Below are positions 544-59,100 of a DNA stretch of 64,000 bases, one piece after another. Below the pieces are notes generated by a model. It was not told where the DNA came from, ran no database searches, and saw nothing but the letters and a program-made list of their open reading frames with translations. Each line of letters opens with the position of its first letter. Within the stretch, counting starts at the first letter, position 1. Both the position numbers and the translations under genes were made by a program. This DNA is from an uncultured Thermodesulfobacteriota bacterium (GTDB lineage: Bacteria; Desulfobacterota; Anaeroferrophillalia; Anaeroferrophillales; Anaeroferrophillaceae). Location: positions 7,943 to 71,942 of the forward strand of contig CAYZIS010000001.1 in the NCBI GenBank assembly GCA_964478545.1, written 5' to 3'.

Positions 544-2073
544 ATGCTTGACCGAATTTCCATTTCCCAGAAGATCCTCCTGGCCTTTGCCTTTGTCCTC
601 ATCTGTCTGATGGCTGTCAACATTTATTCACTGCTGGAAATCAGGAAAATTTCCACCATTGTCAACCAGTTGACTGCAGTGCAGTTTAACTTATGGGATG
701 ACTGCCAGAAAATGGAGCAGGCCAGCGATAATGCCTATAAAGGGATGCGTAAATATCTGCTTTTAAAAAAGCCCACCTATGCGGAACTGGTCAAGAATAA
801 TATTGAGGATGCCCGCACTACAATTAATACTATTTTACAATATCCTCTGGCCGCTGAGCAAAATCTCCTGAGGGTCCGGCTGACAAAAGAATTATCCAGC
901 TTTCATACATTGCTCAATGAAATGTTTGAGCTGCACGAAGGTTCTGATACCGGAACCTTCATAGAAAAGATGAAACTAAGTTATGAACAATGCAAAGGTA
1001 CGCTGGCAGAGTTTCAGCTGCTGGGCTACCGGGAAATCAACCGCAGCTTTATGAAAACCCGGGACATTACCAACCAATATGAACATGACTTGATTGTTTT
1101 TTCCGCCCTGACCTGTCTGGCACTGTTGATCATGTTCCTATGGATAAACTATTCCATCAAACATTCTCTCAGCACCATCATTACCGGGATGAAAAAAATT
1201 ACCCAAGGAGATTTCACCACTCGCATCCAGGGCTTTCGTGACAAGGAAATTGGCAAACTGGCGATCTATTACAATATCATGGCTAACCGACTGACAGAGT
1301 TTGATGAGGTTAAAGCCTCATTCATTGCCAATCTCTCCCATGAAATTAAAACCCCGTTAACTTCCATGAGGGAATCCCTTTCCCTGCTGCAGGAAAAAAT
1401 CGCTGGCCCCTTAAATGAAAAACAGACCCGCCTGGTCAAAATTAATCTGGGTGAAACAGACCGCATTATTAAAATTGTCTCTGACCTGCTTGATATTTCC
1501 CGCATCCGGGCCGGGGTCATCTCTTACAACTTCGCCCCCGGCAACCTGGTTGATTTGCTGCGCTCCCGGATGATGGCAGCTGATTCCCTGGCCGGGAAAA
1601 AAAATATCAGCCTGGACCTAGTACAGGAAAGTCTCTTACCGGCGCAGGAATTCGATGCTTTGCGCTTAGGCCAGGTAATCGACAACCTGCTTTCCAATGC
1701 GATCAAGTTTACCCCGGAAGGCGGCACCATTGAAATCAAGGTAGGCTGTAAAGATGATTTTATCGCCGACAACATACCTTCCTTGCCAGCTGAGCTGGCC
1801 AGAAACTTTATCTTTTTTTCCATCGCTGACTCCGGCACTGGCATCCCTGATACCCTGCTTGACCAGATTTTTGTTCGTTTTCAACAGGGAAACCAGTGGC
1901 TGCCTGACCACAGCAAGGGATCAGGCGTCGGCCTTTCCATTGCAAAATTTTTCATAGAAGGACATCATGGCCTTATCTGGGCTCATAATCGGTCAAACGG
2001 CGGCTGTGTCTTTCATGTAATCATGCCGGAAAAACCTGGCAAGAACAACCTGGCGGAGGCCAAAGATGTTTAA
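544..2073 (+). CDS. sensor histidine kinase (TM - HAMP - HisKA - HATPase_c)
   Basis: HAMP-like 'ITQGDFTTRIQGFRDKEIGKLAIYYNIMANRL'. H-box 'FIANLSHEIKTPLTSM'. ATPase N/G boxes 'DNLLSNAIKFT', 'DSGTGIP', 'GSGVGLSIAK'. Confidence 0.85.
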   Translation: MLDRISISQKILLAFAFVLICLMAVNIYSLLEIRKISTIVNQLTAVQFNLWDDCQKMEQASDNAYKGMRKYLLLKKPTYAELVKNNIEDARTTINTILQYPLAAEQNLLRVRLTKELSSFHTLLNEMFELHEGSDTGTFIEKMKLSYEQCKGTLAEFQLLGYREINRSFMKTRDITNQYEHDLIVFSALTCLALLIMFLWINYSIKHSLSTIITGMKKITQGDFTTRIQGFRDKEIGKLAIYYNIMANRLTEFDEVKASFIANLSHEIKTPLTSMRESLSLLQEKIAGPLNEKQTRLVKINLGETDRIIKIVSDLLDISRIRAGVISYNFAPGNLVDLLRSRMMAADSLAGKKNISLDLVQESLLPAQEFDALRLGQVIDNLLSNAIKFTPEGGTIEIKVGCKDDFIADNIPSLPAELARNFIFFSIADSGTGIPDTLLDQIFVRFQQGNQWLPDHSKGSGVGLSIAKFFIEGHHGLIWAHNRSNGGCVFHVIMPEKPGKNNLAEAKDV

Positions 2074-2671
2074 AAACCATCACCCAGACCATTTTGCAAA
2101 GGCATCAGCCACCATGGCTTTATTTCTTCCGCTGGGCCTGCTGCTGTTCATGCTCCTCCAGCTGAATTCCTGTGCTCCGTTGAATTCCGGGGTCGGTGGC
2201 CTTCTGCACCCCAGTGACCTTACGGATCAACAGCAGGCAACCAAAATCAGTTTGGAACAAACCAGTAAATTGCTTCGCCAGGGAAAATTAAAGGAAGCCA
2301 ACCAGATTTTAAGCTCCCTGCATAATGTTGAAATGGGCATAGCCGAAAAAAATGAATACCACTTTCTAAGCGGTTTGATTTTTGCATTAAAAGATTATGA
2401 ATACCAAAGTTACCAGCGGGCTCTGCGGCATTTAAAACAGGTAAAAGATGTTCCTGGCGACCAGAGTTTATATCCGGTTTACTGTAACCTGTTAAACTAT
2501 CTGCTTCATGATGTGATCAGGCAATATTACCAGATCAAGGAATTGGAAAAAACCGTTGATCAACTGGAACAGGAAATCATGGACAACCAGGATGTCTGCA
2601 GCAAGCTGCAGAAAAAAAATCAACAACTGAGAGAAAAGCTAAAAGCTATAATGAAGATCGATACGGAATAA
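2066..2671 (+). CDS. hypothetical lipoprotein with coiled-coil/TPR-like region; start may be Met at 2114
   Basis: Start overlaps the HK stop by 8 nt (ATGTTTAA). Signal peptide plus 'LQLNSC' lipobox-like motif. Coiled-coil C-terminus. Confidence 0.55.
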   Translation: MFKNHHPDHFAKASATMALFLPLGLLLFMLLQLNSCAPLNSGVGGLLHPSDLTDQQQATKISLEQTSKLLRQGKLKEANQILSSLHNVEMGIAEKNEYHFLSGLIFALKDYEYQSYQRALRHLKQVKDVPGDQSLYPVYCNLLNYLLHDVIRQYYQIKELEKTVDQLEQEIMDNQDVCSKLQKKNQQLREKLKAIMKIDTE

Positions 2672-2689
2672 CCATGATGGCTTGTTTCT

Positions 2690-3035
2690 AAATAAAGCAA
2701 TTAGCTTTTAGCCATTAGCTATTAGTTTATGATTACAGATACCTACCCATTAAATATTGTTACTAATCAACGTAAAGCCTTGATTTTTAAAAGCTAAATG
2801 CTAATGGCTAACTGCTAATCACCTAACTTGTTTTACTATGCCATCAGTTTTCTGACTTCTGGATAAATAATTGTAATATATTGAAATCATTAATTTTTTG
2901 TTTATCAATATCTCACGTTTATAAAGCAATTACCTAAGGATGTCCGGGCTTGGCTCATAGCCGTGTCTGCCGACAGGCAGGCCATGGGAGACCGGCGAGA
3001 ATGAGCGAGAGCCATGCCGGGACATCATCAAGAAC
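2690..3035. repeat. Family-1 repeat, arm + short-hairpin core variant. TTAGCNN heptad arms at 2690-2745 and, inverted, 2790-2830. Core 2938-3026.
   Basis: Core 'GGATGTCCGGGCTTGGCTCATAGCCGTGTCTGCCGACAGGCAGG...GAGAATGAGCGAGAGCCATGCCGGGACATC' matches the ends of the long form at 42193 but lacks its central segment. Confidence 0.75.
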
Positions 3036-3108
3036 AATTACTTACTTTACAGATGTGTGGCCGCAGCAAGCGGACTGAAAACGCTTTTCACCAAAGAAAG
3101 CATCAACA

Positions 3109-4500
3109 ATGAATACCAATGCCTCCGAATCCGGTAGAATTCTGCTGGTTGATGATGATCAGAATATCCTTGAAGTCCTGAAAATAAGGCTAGAATCCAT
3201 TGGCTATGCCGTTGTTGACCACCGCTCACCCCGTGTGGCCTTCCAGGCATTTGCCAATGAACCGTTTGACCTGGTCATCACTGATCTGAAGATGGCGGAG
3301 ATGGACGGCCTGACCCTGATGAAGGAAATTCTGGCCCTGAACATAGATATGCCGGTATTGATCCTCACCGCCCATGGAACCATCGCCAATGCGGTTACCG
3401 CAATGAAAGAAGGGGCTTATGGTTATATCACCAAGCCTTTTCAACCCGAAGAGCTGGCCATCCAGGTAAAAAACGCCATCGAAAAATCCCATTTACGGGC
3501 AGAAATCACACGTTTACAAGATATGCTGGAAGATGAACGCAAGAAGCAGTCACCAATTATTTCCACCAGTCCGGCCATGCGCAATGTTATCAAAACCATC
3601 AGCGCCATCAGTAATTCCAATTCGACGGTCATGATTTTGGGTGAAAGCGGTACGGGGAAAGAACTGGTGGCCCGGGAAATCCATCACCGCAGCCCCAGGA
3701 ACCATAAAAACTTTATCGCGGTTAACTGTGGCGCTATCCCGGAAACTTTACTGGAAAGCGAGTTGTTCGGGTATACAAAAGGGGCCTTCACCGGGGCCGC
3801 AAAAAATCATGCCGGCATTTTCCAGCGTGCCGAGGGCGGAACCATTTTCCTGGATGAAATTACGGAAACTTCTCCATCCTTTCAGGTTAAGTTGCTCCGG
3901 GTTCTCCAAGAAAGATGTGTGTTCCCCTTAGGATCCAATCAGGAAGTGGATATTGACGTCCGGATCATTGCCGCCAGCAACCAGGACCTGGAACAGCAGG
4001 TTCAGACAGGAAAGTTTCGCGAGGATCTTTTCTACCGCATTTATGTCATCCCCATCAACCTGCCACCATTGAGAGAACGCCACGAAGACATCCCTCTACT
4101 TGCCCAGTATTTTCTCGAATACTACCGACAGGAATTACATAAAAATACTATCATTGGCTTTCAGCAGTCAACTCTGCAAAAAATGCTGGTCTATCAATGG
4201 CCGGGAAATATCAGGGAACTTGAAAATAAAATCCAGTACGCCCTGGCTGTTTCGAACGGTGAGTTTATCAACCCCGAAGAAATGTTTCCCGTTTTGCCCG
4301 GCAAAGCCCAGAGTCCAGCAACCACCATGCATGATGCAAAAAAACAGTTTGAACGAGATTATATTATCAATGTTCTCAACATAACCAAAGGAAATGTCAG
4401 CCAGGCAGCCCAACTCTCCGGACGCCACCGGGTTGATTTTTACAACCTGATCAAAAAACATCAGATTGATGTGAATGCTTTCCGCCATAAAACTGCATAG
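3109..4500 (+). CDS. sigma-54-dependent response regulator (NtrC family: REC - AAA+ - Fis HTH)
   Basis: 'ILLVDDDQNILEVL' with receiver Asp 'DLVITDLKM'. Walker A 'GESGTGKE'. 'GAFTGA' sigma-54 contact motif. 'ESELFGY'. C-terminal HTH. Confidence 0.9.
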   Translation: MNTNASESGRILLVDDDQNILEVLKIRLESIGYAVVDHRSPRVAFQAFANEPFDLVITDLKMAEMDGLTLMKEILALNIDMPVLILTAHGTIANAVTAMKEGAYGYITKPFQPEELAIQVKNAIEKSHLRAEITRLQDMLEDERKKQSPIISTSPAMRNVIKTISAISNSNSTVMILGESGTGKELVAREIHHRSPRNHKNFIAVNCGAIPETLLESELFGYTKGAFTGAAKNHAGIFQRAEGGTIFLDEITETSPSFQVKLLRVLQERCVFPLGSNQEVDIDVRIIAASNQDLEQQVQTGKFREDLFYRIYVIPINLPPLRERHEDIPLLAQYFLEYYRQELHKNTIIGFQQSTLQKMLVYQWPGNIRELENKIQYALAVSNGEFINPEEMFPVLPGKAQSPATTMHDAKKQFERDYIINVLNITKGNVSQAAQLSGRHRVDFYNLIKKHQIDVNAFRHKTA

Positions 4501-6357: not shown

Positions 6358-6575
6358 GGATAAATCCTTTCGATTTTAGCTGCTAGCTATCAGCTGTTAG
6401 CTTTTAGTAAAACCTCAACTTTCTGACTTTCATGGCCAAAAATACATTACAGGATGTTCGGGCCTGGCTCATAGCCGTGTCCGCCGTGCCTGCCGGCAGG
6501 CACGGCGACAGGCAGGGCTGTTTTTAGAGCAACTCAGAAAGTTAAGCTTGTGCTTTCAGCTTTATACCTTTAGCC
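6358..6575 (+). repeat. Family-1 composite repeat inserted between porA and porB. TTAGCTN heptads 6361-6395, core 6450-6526, ACCTT-type heptads 6545-6575.
   Basis: Contains a perfect palindrome 'GTGCCTGCCGGCAGGCAC' followed by a T-run. Occupies the entire 218-bp porA-porB gap. Confidence 0.8.
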
Positions 6576-12916: not shown

Positions 12917-13268
12917 AACCTAAGCTAAGCAATTAGCTGTTAGCTATCAGCGTTTAGCTTTAAAAAATCAAGGCATTACGTTTATTAGCAACTCAACGTT
13001 CTGACTTATTTTAAAAACAGCTAAAAAAAATTCCAGGAATGTTCCGGCATGGCTCTCACTCATTCTCGCCGGCTATCCATGGCCGGCTTCCGAGGCGTCC
13101 GCCGTCAATCACCATCCAGGTGATTCGTTCGGCGGCCAAAACCGGCAGGCTGGGTAGACACGGCTATGAGCCAAGCCCAAACATCCTGTAAGGTCCCTGG
13201 CAATACAAGCCAGAAAGTTAAGATTAAACTAATAGCTAACGACTAACTGCTTGATTCAGGAGGAAAAC
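12917..13268 (-). repeat. Family-1 composite repeat, long-form core in reverse orientation. Core 13034-13178, heptad arms 12917-12975 and 13205-13250.
   Basis: The reverse complement of the core aligns with 42193-42326, including the internal GAATCACC/GGTGATTC hairpin and the GCCGGCC-ATGGA-GGCCGGC hairpin. Fills the whole gap up to the ilvD RBS. Confidence 0.8.
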
Positions 13269-16814: not shown

Positions 16815-17819
16815 ATGACCATTTTAAACCGCACCGAATCATTTTACTGTGCTGACCATCCCAGCCTGCTGTGGGAAATGACCATCTGCCAGAGCTTGGC
16901 CAATGGGGAATCGGCGTATGCCAAGGCATTAGCGGAACCGGCAAGCTATGGCAACCTGGTGGGGAAATACCTGCAGGAAAGTTCAGCGCTGCCGGCACAA
17001 CCTGAAAGCATCATTGAAGTTGGCGGGGGCTACGGCTCACTGATGGCCGGGCTGTTGACTGTGCTCCAGCCGAAAAAGCTGACCATGGTGGATATCTCTA
17101 ATTTTCTGCTTAAACAGCAACAGCAGACCCTGAAAGACAGTCAGGCCGAATTCATCTGCCAGGATATTTTTTCTTTTTTGCCCACCTTGCGGCAACCCGT
17201 GGACTTGCTGATTGCCAATGAGATCATCGCCGACTTCCCCACTGCCACCGGGATTGAACAAAAACTTTTACGGCCGCGTCTGGAAAAGGCGGAATCCTTC
17301 AACCCTGTACCACCGGAAAATCTGAATAAGCTGGATGCCGATGAATTACTCAACGAAGTGGCTCGCCTGATAGCCACCTACCGGCTGGACATCACCGATC
17401 TCCCGGATTTCTTCAATCTCAACCTGGGAGCCCTGCATTTCATCGAACAACTGGCCAAAACTGATATTCAACGAATATTTATTACTGAACACGGCGCTGA
17501 CACCGAATTGCCCTACCCCTTTTCCATCCAGCTGCGGACTTATGAACGGCTGGATAAAAATCCCCGGCAGGTAAAACTTAAAGACCATGATGAATACACC
17601 ATCCGTTTTGACCACCTGGAAGCCGCCGCCAGGAAACTGGGATTTATAGTCCGGCGTTTTCACCTGATGGACCTGCTCCAGGTACGTTTTGATGATGAAA
17701 TCAATTACCTGCTGACCACCGGCAGGCCCACCACCGAAGAACAGGAAATCTTGCTTGAATTTTATGAACACGTGGCGGAATACCAGGGAATGTTGCTGAT
17801 AGCTAGGGAAGGTGATTAG
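16815..17819 (+). CDS. class I SAM-dependent methyltransferase-like protein
   Basis: Motif I 'IIEVGGGYGSLMAGL'. Otherwise unassigned. Confidence 0.5.
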   Translation: MTILNRTESFYCADHPSLLWEMTICQSLANGESAYAKALAEPASYGNLVGKYLQESSALPAQPESIIEVGGGYGSLMAGLLTVLQPKKLTMVDISNFLLKQQQQTLKDSQAEFICQDIFSFLPTLRQPVDLLIANEIIADFPTATGIEQKLLRPRLEKAESFNPVPPENLNKLDADELLNEVARLIATYRLDITDLPDFFNLNLGALHFIEQLAKTDIQRIFITEHGADTELPYPFSIQLRTYERLDKNPRQVKLKDHDEYTIRFDHLEAAARKLGFIVRRFHLMDLLQVRFDDEINYLLTTGRPTTEEQEILLEFYEHVAEYQGMLLIAREGD

Positions 17820-17892
17820 CTTTTAGCCTTTAGCTTTAGAAAACCAAGGCTCTGTGTTAATGAGAAGCAACGCTCAACAGATGACGGCATAC

Positions 17893-18110: not shown

Positions 18111-18130
18111 CTAGTACGAAGCCAGCAAAA

Positions 18131-20038
18131 CTATTTTTTCCCCTTGCCATACCCCAACGGCACCACTGCTTCAGCAATTTCATCAAGCACCGTCGGATCG
18201 TCAATAGTTGAAGGCATGCGGAAATCCTCGTTATCGGCAATTTTACGCATGGTACCCCGCAGGATCTTACCGGAACGGGTTTTGGGCAAGCGATTTACCA
18301 CCGTCGCCTGGCGGAAAGAGGCAACCGCCCCGATCTGATCCCGGACCATTTGGACCAGCTCTTTAGCAATTTCACCAGGATCTTTCGTCACCCCGGTTTT
18401 CAAAACAAAGAATCCCAGGGGCACTTGGCCTTTCAGATCATCGGCAACTCCCAAGACCGCGCATTCAGCCACATCCGGATGGGTGGCGACAATCTCTTCC
18501 ATGCCGCCAGTGGAAAGACGGTGACCGGCCACATTGATAACATCATCCACCCGCCCCATGATATAGACATAGCCCTCATCATCAATATAACCACCATCAC
18601 CGGTGAAATAGTAGCCGGGATACATACTGACATATGATTCCTTATAACGCTGATCCTGCTCCCACAACGTCGGCAAACAACCAGGAGGCAGCGGCAACTT
18701 AATGGTAACGATACCTTCAGTATTGGGACCCAACTCCTTGCCTTCATTGTCAAGAATCTGGACATTGAAACCTGGCACCCGCTTGGTGGGTGATCCGGGT
18801 TTAATCGGAAGTTTTTCAATCCCCAGGCAGTTGCCGGCAATAGCCCAGGCGGTTTCCGTCTGCCACCAGTGATCAATGACCGGTTTATGCAGCAGGTCGG
18901 AAGCCCAGTGATAGGTATCGGGATCGAGACGCTCACCGGCCAGAAAGAGATATTTAAAACAGGAGAGGTCATACTTTTTCAGCAGCTTACCCTGAGGATC
19001 CTCCTTTTTGATCGCCCGAAAAGCCGTCGGCGCCGTAAACAGCACCTTGACCTTATGCTCGGAAATCACCCGCCAGAAAGCGCCGGCATCCGGGGTACCC
19101 ACAGGTTTCCCCTCATAGACGATAGTGGTACAGCCCAGCATCAAAGGCGCGTAGACAATGTAGGAATGGCCGACAACCCAGCCGACATCGGATGCCGCCC
19201 AGTATACATCCCCGGGCTGCACATCGTAGACATTACGCATACTCCATTTCATGGCCACCGCGTGCCCACCGTTATCGCGCACCACCCCTTTGGGAATCCC
19301 GGTAGTTCCGGAAGTATAGAGAATATACAGCGGATCGGTGGCGGCCACGGTAACACACTCAGTCGGTTCGGCCTGGGCCATGGCATCATCCCAATCCAGA
19401 TCCCGACCAGCAATCAGTTCGGACTGCACCTGCGGCCGTTGAAGAATGATACATTTATCCGGTTTTACCTCGGCCAGCTCAATAGCTTTGTCCAGCAGCG
19501 GTTTATAGGCAATAACCTTGGTCGCCCCTTCCAATCCGCAGGAAGCGGAGATAATCAGTTTCGGCTTGGCGTCATTGATCCGGATTGCCAGTTCATTGGG
19601 GGCAAAACCACCGAAAACCACCGAATGGACGACACCAATGCGGGCGCAAGCCAACATGGCCACCAGAGTTTCGGAGATCATTGGCATATAAATAATCGCC
19701 GTATCTCCTTTTTTCAGCCCCTGCGCTCGAATAACCCCGGCAAAACGGGAAACCTGATCCTGCAATTCGCGATAGGTAATTTTTTTAACTGTATTGGTCT
19801 GGGGACTGTCGTAAATAATAGCGACCTGATCAGCCCGGCCGTTTTCCACATGATAATCAATGGCATTGTAACAGCTATTCAATTCCCCGCCGGTAAACCA
19901 ACGGTAAAAATAGGGTTTGCCATAGTCATCCAGCACCTTATCCCATTTTTTCACCCACTGGACATCCTCGGCAGCCTCAGCCCAAAAACCATCCGGATCT
20001 TCAATGGAACGACGATACGCCTCATCATATTTACCCAT
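18131..20038 (-). CDS. AMP-forming acyl-CoA synthetase (Acs/PrpE family; possibly propionate--CoA ligase)
   Basis: 'YTSGTTGIPKGV' AMP-binding motif. Acs-like N-terminus 'DPDGFWAEAAEDVQWVKKWDKV'. 635 aa. Confidence 0.85.
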   Translation of the reverse strand: MGKYDEAYRRSIEDPDGFWAEAAEDVQWVKKWDKVLDDYGKPYFYRWFTGGELNSCYNAIDYHVENGRADQVAIIYDSPQTNTVKKITYRELQDQVSRFAGVIRAQGLKKGDTAIIYMPMISETLVAMLACARIGVVHSVVFGGFAPNELAIRINDAKPKLIISASCGLEGATKVIAYKPLLDKAIELAEVKPDKCIILQRPQVQSELIAGRDLDWDDAMAQAEPTECVTVAATDPLYILYTSGTTGIPKGVVRDNGGHAVAMKWSMRNVYDVQPGDVYWAASDVGWVVGHSYIVYAPLMLGCTTIVYEGKPVGTPDAGAFWRVISEHKVKVLFTAPTAFRAIKKEDPQGKLLKKYDLSCFKYLFLAGERLDPDTYHWASDLLHKPVIDHWWQTETAWAIAGNCLGIEKLPIKPGSPTKRVPGFNVQILDNEGKELGPNTEGIVTIKLPLPPGCLPTLWEQDQRYKESYVSMYPGYYFTGDGGYIDDEGYVYIMGRVDDVINVAGHRLSTGGMEEIVATHPDVAECAVLGVADDLKGQVPLGFFVLKTGVTKDPGEIAKELVQMVRDQIGAVASFRQATVVNRLPKTRSGKILRGTMRKIADNEDFRMPSTIDDPTVLDEIAEAVVPLGYGKGKK

Positions 20039-20310
20039 ACTGACCTCCCCAAGCTAGTGGTTGTCTATGATCATCAGCTCATCCGGAAACAGAAATTTCC
20101 GGGTAAGCACCAATTAAAACATGAATTTAATCACCTATTCCTGTACGGTAAAATCACTGTCCTCCAGCCTTATCAACCACCTCTATAAAGATGCATACAA
20201 TATTGACATTCATAAACCACAAACACCGTTCATGTCAAGAACATATACTCAGTCAATGCTCGTCAGTCAGAATCCGCCAGAATCATATTCATTGCAGAGA
20301 TAATGAACAA

Positions 20311-20562
20311 TTGCACAAAGTCAAACCGGGTTTCACTATCAGTATCATCATCATTTTTCCCTTGACATTTTCACCTTCCCCTTATAAGAAACAATTGCAC
20401 AAAGTCAAACCGGGTTTCACTATCAGTGTCATCGTCATTTTTCCCTTGACATTTTCACCTTCCCCTTATAAGGAGAGATTGCACAAAGTCAAACCGGGTT
20501 TCACTATCAGTGTCATCATCATTTTTCCCTTGACATTTTCACCTTCCCCTTATAAGGAGAGA
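20311..20562 (+). repeat. 3 x 84-bp perfect-period tandem repeat. Each unit carries the palindromes AAACCGGGTTT and CCTTATAAGG plus a TTGACA.
   Basis: Unit starts at 20311, 20395 and 20479. Lies in the divergent region between the two acyl-CoA synthetase genes. Confidence 0.85.
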
Positions 20563-20787
20563 ATATCGGCGTAATAAATGCAATTTCACGTTTTATTATG
20601 TCACCCTCAACTTTTCAAAAGCACATTGATGACGGACCTGATTGTTAATTTACATATCGGTTCAGTCGGGAAATAGCCTGGACCAACGAAGATGGCAATC
20701 AACCTGAATTCGTGCCTATTAAAATGGCAGGAAATCAGGTATTGGTGGTAAGCATCACTTAACTTTTTACAGAGAAGGAGGATTTTC

Positions 20788-22767
20788 ATGGCTGATGCAA
20801 CAGAGCTGAAAAGTGTATATCCAGTACCGGAAGAATTCCGCAAAAAAGCGTACTTCAAAAGCCGGGAAAAATACCAAAAACTATATGATGAATCCATCAA
20901 CGATAGCGATGGTTTCTGGGGACGGATCGCCGAAGAATATGTCACGTGGTTTAAAAAATGGGACAAGGTACAAGACTGGAAATTCAGCAAGGATGAAGTC
21001 TACCTGAAATGGTTCTTGGGTGGCAAGCTGAACGTTTCCTACAACTGCCTTGACCGTCACCTGGAAAAACGCGGCGATCAGGTAGCCCTGATCTTTGAAG
21101 GCAACGAACCAACTGTCGACAAAAAATTCACCTATAAAAAACTGCATGAGCTGGTCTGCAAATTCGCTAACGTGATGAAAGCACACGGCGTCAAAAGAGG
21201 TGACCGGGTAACCATCTACCTGCCAATGATTCCGGAACTGGCCATTACCATGCTTGCCTGCACCCGAATCGGAGCCATGCACTCCATCGTCTTTGGTGGT
21301 TTTTCCTCTGAGGCCCTTAAAGACCGGATCCAGGACTGCGATTCTAATTTTCTCATCTCCTGCAACGCCTACTATCGCGGCGCCAAGGTCATCAACCAGA
21401 AAACCAATGTTGATGCCGCAGTAGCCCAGTGCCCGACCATCAAAAATACGATTATCGTCAAGCACGAAGCCGAAGTCGATGTAGCCATGAAAGCAGGCTA
21501 TGACCTCTCTTATGAAGATGAGATGGCCAAGGTTGATGCCAACTGCGAACCGGAATGGATGGATTCCGAAGATCCGCTCTTTCTGCTCTACACCTCCGGC
21601 TCTACCGGTAAACCCAAAGGGGTTATCCATACCACCGGCGGCTACCTGCTCTATACTGCATTCACTCACAAGAATATTTTTGACTACCATGATGGCGATA
21701 TCTTTTTCTGCGCTGCCGACATCGGCTGGGTCACCGGGCATTCTTACATCGTTTATGGTCCCCTGTGCAACGGCGCCACCTCAGTCATGTTTGAAGGGGT
21801 ACCCAACTATCCGGATGCCGGCCGCTACTGGGACATTATCGGCAAGCACAAAATCAACACCCTCTATACCGCTCCGACCGCCATCCGCGCCATCGCCGGC
21901 CAGGGCGACAGTTTTGTCACCAGCCGTCTTGACAAGCTTGACAGCCTGACCCTGCTGGGCACAGTCGGTGAGCCCATCAACCCGGAAGCCTGGAAATGGT
22001 ATTATGAGCTGCCCGGCCGCAGCAAATGCCCCATCGTTGATACCTGGTGGCAGACGGAAAACGGCGGCATCCTGATCACCGGCCTGCCAGGCGCCATTGA
22101 CATGAAACCCGGCTATGCCACCACCCCGTTCTTCGGAGTTGATCCGATTATTGTTGAACCGACCAGCGGTGAAGAGATTAAAGGTCAGGCTGAAGGCGCC
22201 CTGTGCATCAAACGCCCATGGCCTGGATTGATGCGCGGCGTCTACGGTGATCCCGATCGTTTCAGGACGACCTATTTTGTTCAGTATGACGGTTATTATT
22301 TCAGCGGTGACGGTGCCATGCGCGATAAAAATGGCGATTACCGGCTTATGGGCCGCATCGATGATGTTATCAATATCTCCGGTCACCGGATGGGTACCGC
22401 TGAAGTAGAAAGTGCCCTGGTGCTGAATAAGAACGTTGCTGAAGCCGCGGTTGTCGGCATGCCCCATGAGATCAAAGGACAGGGCATTTATGCCTATGTA
22501 ACCTTGAATGCCGGTGTTGAAGGCACTGACGCCCTCAAGAAAGAACTGGTCGCTTTGGTCCGTAAGGAGATTGGGCCCATCGCCAGTCCGGATAAGATCC
22601 AGTGGGCCCCGGCACTACCGAAGACCCGTTCCGGGAAAATCATGCGCCGCATCCTGCGTAAGATTGCCGCCAATGAAGTTGATATGAAAGGTTTAGGCGA
22701 CACCTCAACCCTGGCTGATCCTTCAGTGGTCCAAGGCTTGATTGATACCCGGGAAAATCGCGGTTAG
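20788..22767 (+). CDS. acs: acetyl-CoA synthetase
   Basis: '[23 protein letters not shown]', '[12 protein letters not shown]', '[17 protein letters not shown]'. GAAGGAGG RBS. Confidence 0.92.
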
Positions 22768-28789: not shown

Positions 28790-29300
28790 GGTGGCAAAGG
28801 CTCAATGATTTTCTATCCCAGGCTAGACAGAATGAAGAAAAGAAACAGTTTTTTGATGAACAGGAACTGAGTTTTATCGGCATTAACTCATTTGCCGATC
28901 TGGTTCGTCTGATTATCCACGATTACCACAGCAACTTCAAACTTGATCTGGTAACCTTGACCTTGGTCGATCCGGGATACGAATTACGGCGTATGGTTGA
29001 AGGGACGGAACCATAGCTGGGGTAATACCAGGAACTTATTTTTTTTACCGGAACCAACCTCTCTGAATGATCTTTATGGTTTACAGACAGATCCTATCTT
29101 GGACATTTACAGCCATGAAAAGCATGCTTTTTTATTTCCAGGTGGGTCTCGGAGGCTGTCATCTGTAGTGCTACTGCCTTTGATACGGCGTGGAACACTG
29201 ATCGGCAGTCAACAACCTTGGCAGTTATCAGGAAGAACGCTATACTGCCGATGGTTAGCCACTTGGCAACCGTGGGTCTCAAAAATTTGGACAATATGTT
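28790..29300 (+). pseudogene. possible decayed GAF-domain regulator remnant (frame-shifted fragments)
   Basis: Fragments 'DEQELSFIGINSFADLVRLIIHDYHSNFKLDLVTLTLVDPGYELRRMVEG' and 'FPGGSRRLSSVVLLPLIRRGTLIGS' lie in different frames. Confidence 0.3.
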
Positions 29301-58954: not shown

Positions 58955-59100
58955 GGGTCAACTAAATTGAGCTATTAGTTTAATGATTACAGGATTACAA
59001 ACTATCACCCGTTTAGTGCTATCTCTTATTAACGTAACGCCTTGATTTTTCAACGCTAAACGCCAATGGCAAACAGCTAATCGCTAAATCGGGTGCAATT
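58955..59100. repeat. Family-1 heptad-arm module (TTAGCNN repeats in both orientations) without a core
   Basis: 'AGCTATTAGTTTAATGATTACAG...TTATTAACGTAACGCCTTGATTTTT...' aligns with 2700-2830. Confidence 0.65.

Follow-up and report, generated by a model that had tools for sequence, protein, structure and literature searches.

Three tandem copies of a conserved promoter-like segment in front of the acetate--CoA ligase gene of an uncultured Thermodesulfobacteriota bacterium

The intergenic region upstream of the acetate--CoA ligase gene (acs) of an uncultured Thermodesulfobacteriota bacterium contains a tandem array of three 84-bp units, which we regard, with a probability of about 60%, as a recent and lineage-specific triplication of a conserved segment of the acs upstream region, giving three tandem sigma-70-like promoters and probably raising or tuning the transcription of acs. 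The array was analysed within a stretch of 64,000 nucleotides, referred to here as the window, and compared with the corresponding loci of eleven relatives. As judged from the alignments, the conserved feature of the repeated DNA is a promoter-like element of the type TTGACA-N15-TATAGr together with an upstream ATTGCACAA box, not the palindromes that had been put forward in a preliminary description of the locus. The relevant features are the following.

18131-20038, minus strand: PrpE/Acs-like acyl-CoA synthetase gene (635 aa), the divergent left neighbour, recognized from its open reading frame and NCBIfam matches
20300-20318, plus strand: full copy of the upstream box ATAATGAAyrATTGCACAA, the left half of which is the ATAATGA microhomology
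20311-20394, plus strand: unit 1, with the tail AAGAAACA, followed by a chimeric junction to unit 2 that combines right-end and left-flank sequence
20395-20478, plus strand: unit 2, with a private A>G exchange at unit position 40
20479-20562, plus strand: unit 3, running on into the unique right flank AATATCGG
20320-20336, 20404-20420 and 20488-20504, no strand: imperfect palindrome GTCAAACCGGGTTTCAC, lineage-specific and not conserved
20362-20388, plus strand: promoter-like element, copy 1, with TTGACA at 20362-20367, a 15-nt spacer, TATAAG at 20383-20388 and a T-tract before it
20446-20472, plus strand: promoter-like element, copy 2 (TTGACA-N15-TATAAG)
20530-20556, plus strand: promoter-like element, copy 3 (TTGACA-N15-TATAAG), in the ancestral position, 258 nt before the acs ATG
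20570-20582, plus strand: CGTAATAAATGCA, a degenerate homologue of the TATAATAAATACA box, outside the repeat
20788-22767, plus strand: acs, acetate--CoA ligase (659 aa), co-oriented with and downstream of the repeated promoter-like elements

Analysis of the 64-kb window with TRF revealed a tandem array of period 84 at 20310-20562 (3.0 copies, 95% matches, score 464), and a repeat search placed three in-register copies at 20300-20388, 20384-20472 and 20468-20556, amounting to about 3.1 copies over 20300-20556. The homology of the array therefore begins about 10 nt to the left of position 20311, from which the preliminary description had counted. A perfect 3 x 84-bp array with only 2 to 3 substitutions between the units had been described there; the array indeed exists with this period and with 3.0-3.1 copies, but it is not perfect, and the substitution counts do not agree with the sequence. 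In the register starting at 20311, unit 1 differs from unit 2 at 6 positions and from unit 3 at 5, with four of the differences of unit 1 bunched at the 3' end of the unit, and a single substitution separates units 2 and 3. The TTGACA hexamer reported for each unit is present in all three of them. All other tandem repeats detected by TRF in the 64 kb have periods of at most 22 nt and about 2 copies, leaving the period-84 array as the sole long-period one. No second copy of the 84-bp unit was found in the window by blastn-short and mismatch searches, and a 25-mer from the unit gave 0 matches in the collections genome_contigs and metagenome_contigs, where the source species is apparently not represented. 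A dispersed repeat family of the MIRU, REP or MITE-like kind was rejected as a candidate, since the unit occurs at one locus only in the 64 kb and the 25-mer remained unmatched in both collections.

Dispersed repeats of another kind do occur in the window. Heptamer arrays of the form (TTAGCNN)n with 3-5 units were observed at intergenic positions just after gene ends, as compared with the ends of the open reading frames, with two pairs inverted relative to each other:

2696-2726, plus strand: (TTAGCNN)n array
2788-2819, minus strand: (TTAGCNN)n array
6376-6408, plus strand: (TTAGCNN)n array
12926-12958, plus strand: (TTAGCNN)n array
13228-13246, minus strand: (TTAGCNN)n array
17816-17839, plus strand: (TTAGCNN)n array
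59055-59087, minus strand: (TTAGCNN)n array

The sequence TTAGCNNTTAGC has 21 matches in the window with at most 1 mismatch, compared to 2.9 expected, and we take these arrays to be reminiscent of the cyanobacterial heptamer STRR repeats. A cluster of DnaA boxes suspected at the TRF entry at 28911 turned out to be not above chance.

The location of the array between a PrpE/Acs-like gene on the minus strand and acs on the plus strand, as given in the preliminary description, is borne out by the open reading frames and their NCBIfam matches. The acs product scores 954 bits against TIGR02188 (cut-off 725), and the product of the left neighbour has its best matches among propionate--CoA ligase models, where it stays under the equivalog cut-offs, and exceeds the cut-off of an acetate--CoA ligase subfamily model. 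The further neighbours are a methyltransferase, HIT, PDDEXK and ilvD on one side and HGD-D, GGDEF, PilZ and Germane on the other; no regulator gene was identified beside the array among the flanking genes on either side. The nearest homologues of Acs (84-92% identity) belong to uncultured Thermodesulfobacteriota or 'Deltaproteobacteria' MAGs, including Candidatus Anaeroferrophillacea, which has been described from MAGs as a class of strict anaerobes (bioRxiv 10.1101/2021.03.22.436540). The divergent pair of a prpE-like gene (minus) and acs (plus) is kept in nine relatives that allowed a check of both genes; these nine are all uncultured Thermodesulfobacteriota or Ca. Anaeroferrophillacea-like MAGs.

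Some further observations concern the left half of the locus. Over the stretch 18129-20246 of the window, which takes in the PrpE-like gene and the adjoining ~200 nt of intergenic DNA, the DNA identity to positions 1475-3589 of the JGI contig L003 is 94.6% (98% at the protein level), compared to only 87-89% for acs and the other flanking genes. This stretch may represent a recombination tract, with its right end about 60 nt to the left of the array, or reflect a much stronger constraint on the PrpE-like gene. A second promoter-like block at 20209-20238 (minus strand) faces the prpE-like gene and consists of TTGACA (20238-20233), 18 nt and TATGAA (20214-20209); the sequences CTTGACAT and GGTTTAT of this block are kept in L003, L087 and L006. 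The hairpin-capable sequence CCGGAAAcagaaaTTTCCGG (20083-20102), situated in the leader 45-65 nt before the start of the prpE-like gene, is only weakly conserved in L003.

Two further assemblies carry the array, a Logan contig (L001) and an ENA megahit k141 contig (L002), which match the window at 100% identity over 7.2 and 13.9 kb. According to these identities, the three array-bearing assemblies represent one strain, and the comparison of copy numbers is thus one between species only. For this comparison, eleven relatives were used (L003, L004/L005, L006, L007-L011, L061 and L087), whose Acs proteins are 84-92% identical where measured. L087, another single-copy relative with an acs gene ~88% identical in DNA, was found via a DNA pattern by searching the metagenomes with a 22-mer shared with L003. 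The homologous segment is present in exactly one copy in all eleven relatives, and TRF found no tandem repeat upstream of acs in any of them, nor among 80 acs loci. The variable copy number suspected from the start is thus confirmed between species (3 copies here versus 1 in the related genomes), and the triplicated structure is evident from the comparison.

In an alignment anchored on TTGACA, the single-copy module of the relatives consists of a T-tract (CTTTTTyC), TTGACATTT, exactly 15 nt and the sequence CT-TATA-(G/A)(G/A). The TTGACA hexamer, the 15-nt spacing and the TATA sequence are invariant in 11 of 11 relatives and the T-tract is nearly so, TTGACATTT is invariant in ten, with L011 containing TTGACAATC, and the rest of the intergenic DNA around the module is barely alignable. 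The module is located 173-306 nt 5' of the acs ATG in the relatives and directed towards acs. A second conserved feature is the upstream box, which has 3 matches in the window (0.29 expected), i.e., the full copy at the left end and partial copies at the unit junctions (20384-20402 and 20468-20486). It is recognizable in five relatives, those nearest in this region; in L003, L087, L006 and L011 it precedes TTGACA by 49-51 nt, with ~41 variable nt between the box and the T-tract. The upstream box is a candidate site for a regulator of acs in this lineage, and its first half presumably resembles a half-site of a Fur box (GATAATGA). Because of the single-copy homology in the relatives, the 84-bp unit can be recognized as an ancestral control module whose left end falls in the middle of the upstream box and whose right end lies just beyond the -10-like box, and the DNA after copy 3 (AATATCGGCGTAATAAATGCA) is homologous to that following the single copy in the relatives. 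The TATAATAAATACA box, which contains TATAAT, is conserved directly downstream of the module in several relatives. Closer to the gene, the acs leaders of L004, L061, L008, L009, L010 and L007 share conserved islands ~80-110 nt before the ATG, including TGTATTTTGTATG and CAAACCWT...CGCAGGAGGATTTTC, which are without an Rfam match and could constitute a second promoter or a leader element.

The sequences at the unit boundaries suggest how the array may have originated. In the 84-bp register, the left boundary reads AGAGATAATGAACAA followed by TTGCA, the first internal junction CCTTATAAGAAACAA followed by TTGCA, the second internal junction CCTTATAAGGAGAGA followed by TTGCA, and the right boundary CCTTATAAGGAGAGA followed by ATATC. 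The first junction is chimeric, being of the right-end type through TAAG and of the left-flank type from AACAA, and the second is purely of the right-end type. Since the two internal junctions differ, at least two events appear to be recorded, and the near-identity of units 2 and 3 indicates that the array is young. The upstream box (ATAATGA) and the -10-like box (ATAAGGA) share the microhomology ATAAkGA at a distance of 84 bp, and the first duplication would most likely have arisen by slipped-strand or illegitimate recombination between these two sequences. The third copy may then have been added by unequal homologous crossing-over of misaligned copies, leaving the chimeric first junction behind. 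This history of slippage followed by crossing-over is inferred from the junction sequences; it would explain the period of 84 bp as inherited from the ancestral spacing of the ATAAkGA microhomologies. The preliminary description had equated 84 bp with eight helical turns, which is numerically correct (8 x 10.5) but, given the ancestral microhomology spacing, is no evidence of a designed phasing.

Several properties of the repeated element argue for a sigma-70-type promoter, namely the perfect -35 hexamer, the upstream T-tract, the fixed spacing, the TATA-containing -10-like box, the right orientation, and its being the best-conserved non-coding block. The array would then present three co-oriented sigma-70-like elements 84 bp apart, each with most of the upstream box. 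This spacing is about the size of the footprint of RNA polymerase, so that all three elements could perhaps be occupied simultaneously. The likeliest outcome would be an increased or copy-number-tunable transcription of acs, and thereby of acetate activation, as is to be expected from the transcription-raising effect of tandem core promoters (PMC3293061) if the promoter reading is right. Both the promoter identity of the elements and their effect on expression are predictions from the sequence, and the comparison as a whole supports a non-coding, regulatory nature of the array.

The putative promoter does not have the canonical sigma-70 geometry, because the spacer is 15 nt instead of 16-18 nt and the -10-like box (TATAAG or TATAGr) is without a T at position 6. 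A consensus scan of 19900-20900 returned 0 sites for a sigma-70 promoter or a terminator. The implied 5' UTR of acs is long, amounting to ~225 nt if transcription starts at copy 3 and to as many as ~395 nt if it starts at copy 1. Since several relatives contain a better -10 sequence outside the repeat (TATAAT in TATAATAAATACA), the conserved block could also be the site of a regulator and not a core promoter. Searches of the window for TTGACA-N15-TATAR and TTGACA-N15-19-TANNNT yielded nothing informative outside the array, and no promoter consensus of the lineage was derivable from them. Readings of the unit as a sigma-54 (-24 GG/-12 TTGCA) or sigma-32 promoter were rejected by eye, as a GG is missing at -24 and the relatives do not share the CCCC of 'CCCCTTAT'.

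The main functional alternative, which would leave the identification of the structure unchanged, is that of a neutral minisatellite generated by slippage and unequal crossing-over, with silent or redundant extra copies that do not affect the expression of acs or the prpE-like gene. We consider this possible, but unlikely. It would fit the very young age of the structure, with units 2 and 3 differing at 1 of 84 positions, the occurrence of the array in one strain only, the lack of any tendency of the relatives to amplify the region, and the non-canonical form of the promoter-like element. However, the duplicated segment coincides exactly with the best-conserved block of cis-elements of the intergenic region, at least two successive expansion events have been retained, and extra promoter-like elements 5' of a gene usually alter its transcription (PMC3293061; PMC12817950). 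If the triplication should nevertheless be neutral, the array would be a young minisatellite of little consequence.

A more far-reaching and rather doubtful proposal is a contingency locus, in which the array would act as a promoter 'rheostat' that gains and loses copies by unequal crossing-over and thereby tunes acetate scavenging, with the lineage-specific palindrome GTCAAACCGGGTTTCAC as a newly evolved operator copied together with the promoter. If true, this would extend the phase-variable promoter tandem repeats, which are documented mainly in pathogens, to the central carbon metabolism of environmental anaerobes.

The palindromes are also at the centre of the proposal that a regulator binds to GTCAAACCGGGTTTCAC and/or CCTTATAAGG at three sites spaced by eight helical turns and thereby controls one or both of the divergent genes, which we judge to be improbable. 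Two palindromes per unit had initially been described, which holds for GTCAAACCGGGTTTCAC, with three exact matches in the window, one per unit (0.18 expected), but not for CCTTATAAGG, which occurs in units 2 and 3 only; unit 1 carries the 8-bp palindrome CCTTATAAGA instead. By chance, one 84-nt unit would seldom contain two palindromes with arms of 5 bp (P ~0.006 in composition-preserving shuffles), the period is close to eight turns, and the conserved ATTGCACAA box, which is repeated as well, could be the site of a factor. Against such an operator or enhancer array stands the finding that, at the homologous position, none of the 11 relatives shares either palindrome: GTCAAACCGGGTTTCAC is absent from all of them and from the window outside the array, its homologous position reading GTTAAGCTAAATGCCCT in L003 and GTTAAGCTGAATATCCC in L087, AAACCGGGTTT is likewise absent at the homologous position in all 11, and CCTTATAAGG is the local form of the conserved CTTATAG/A box, which is non-palindromic in most relatives. 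Moreover, the array itself is missing from all relatives, the flanking genes include no identified regulator, and the period is accounted for by the ancestral spacing of the microhomologies. We presume that the resemblances of the unit to a LacI-type operator or a Fur box fit poorly, as they involve an odd-centred palindrome or a half-site only. Thus, of the initial suggestion of an operator or enhancer array or a copy-number-variable region, the difference in copy number stands and the palindromes as functional core are not supported.

An explanation of the array as an assembly artefact or as repeated structured RNA (tandem riboswitch, leader or sRNA units) is highly improbable. Tandem repeats are prone to be mishandled by short-read assemblers, which collapse such repeats more often than they expand them. 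The Logan contig begins within unit 3 of the array, a break expected of a small-k assembler that meets a repeat. In contrast, the 749-nt intergenic region of the k141 megahit contig is base-for-base identical to that of the window, and the exact recurrence of all unit-specific substitutions and of the two junction types in this assembly makes an artefact unlikely. Another assembly besides the Logan contig stops inside the prpE-like/acs intergenic region: that of the relative L006 (GCA_016938755.1, contig JAFGTY010000016.1) ends 410 nt upstream of acs, with one copy of the module in the assembled part, and this break might conceal a repeat further upstream. At this locus, short-read assemblies break or may count too few copies. 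As for structured RNA, the whole array folds slightly better than shuffled sequences (z = -2.3 and -1.7), which is attributable to pairing of the palindromes between units, but a single unit is no more stable than shuffled sequences on either strand (z = -0.01 and +0.36). Rfam searches of the array region at E<=10 gave only noise, with best scores of 16-23 bits versus gathering scores of 50-85, and seven relatives gave no matches at the gathering threshold.

A coding function of the array can practically be dismissed. The reading frame in question is the following.

20191-20574, plus strand: 127-aa open reading frame, in frame through the array (84 bp corresponding to 28 codons) and judged spurious

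This frame with its 28-aa repeats stays open across all units because the period of 84 is a multiple of 3, and each unit contains an AAGGAG-like sequence before a TTG on the plus strand and an ATG on the minus strand, as would suit translation of the frame itself or of small ORFs per unit (e.g., MMMTLIVKPGLTLCNLSL on the minus strand); however, the product has no significant Pfam match and nothing near a gathering score at E<=1, the frame is uncalled as a gene in the identical ENA contig, indels of 1-2 nt disrupt it in the homologous stretch of L006 and L087, the C-terminal continuation in the relatives is unlike that of the window, and conservation is concentrated in the DNA motifs and not along the frame. 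These indels are apparent from the spacing of the TTGCAC and TTGACA boxes, which is 49, 50 or 51 nt depending on the relative, and the initial assessment of the frame as an artefact is therefore shared here.

The closest known kind of element to which the array can be assigned, by analogy, is that of promoter tandem repeats (promoter VNTRs): it is a head-to-tail array (20300-20562) directly upstream of and co-oriented with acs (20788), and its copy number differs among related genomes, with three copies here and one in the 11 relatives. In Mycobacterium tuberculosis, a 57-bp promoter tandem repeat upstream of dop occurs in 1-3 copies and has been proposed to be phase-variable, and others are found upstream of lpdA and cysG (PMC12817950). 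Like the acs array, these are head-to-tail repeats of tens of bp containing a promoter region (here predicted) directly 5' of a gene, they differ between 1 and 3 copies in related genomes, they are ascribed to strand slippage or recombination, and they are proposed to alter promoter strength. The present case differs in its 84-bp unit, in the gene concerned and in the host, an uncultured anaerobic member of the Thermodesulfobacteriota, as well as in a variation seen between species only and in a promoter that is deduced from sequence. A duplicated promoter architecture has also been described upstream of cfiA in Bacteroides fragilis (PMC13509656), which is likewise a natural duplication of promoter-like motifs 5' of one gene with a proposed higher expression and sequence-based support, but involves two copies, a Bacteroides consensus promoter and selection by carbapenems, compared to three copies here. 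A mechanistic precedent for the proposed effect is provided by the engineered MCPtacs promoters of Escherichia coli, in which multiple identical and co-oriented core promoters before one gene raise transcription stepwise, up to five copies (PMC3293061). These are synthetic tac core promoters, whereas the units of the array are longer (84 bp), natural, and equipped with the upstream box and lineage-specific palindromes. Mycobacterial MIRUs, REP/BIME elements, MITEs and iteron or operator arrays share with the acs array the intergenic location and the tandem units of tens of bp with short palindromes, but the acs array is confined to one locus in 64 kb, its unit has single-copy homologues at the corresponding position in the relatives, and its palindromes are unconserved.

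The AMP-forming acetyl-CoA synthetase is the high-affinity route of acetate assimilation. The comparison presented here defines an acs control module of this lineage, composed of an upstream box (in five relatives), a T-tract with TTGACA, a 15-nt spacer and TATAGr. If the three copies of this module are active promoters, the array would represent a natural adaptive cis-regulatory amplification at a key enzyme of carbon entry in an organism known only from metagenomes, and variation of promoter copy number would shape the metabolism of environmental anaerobes as well, beyond the cases of M. tuberculosis and B. fragilis.
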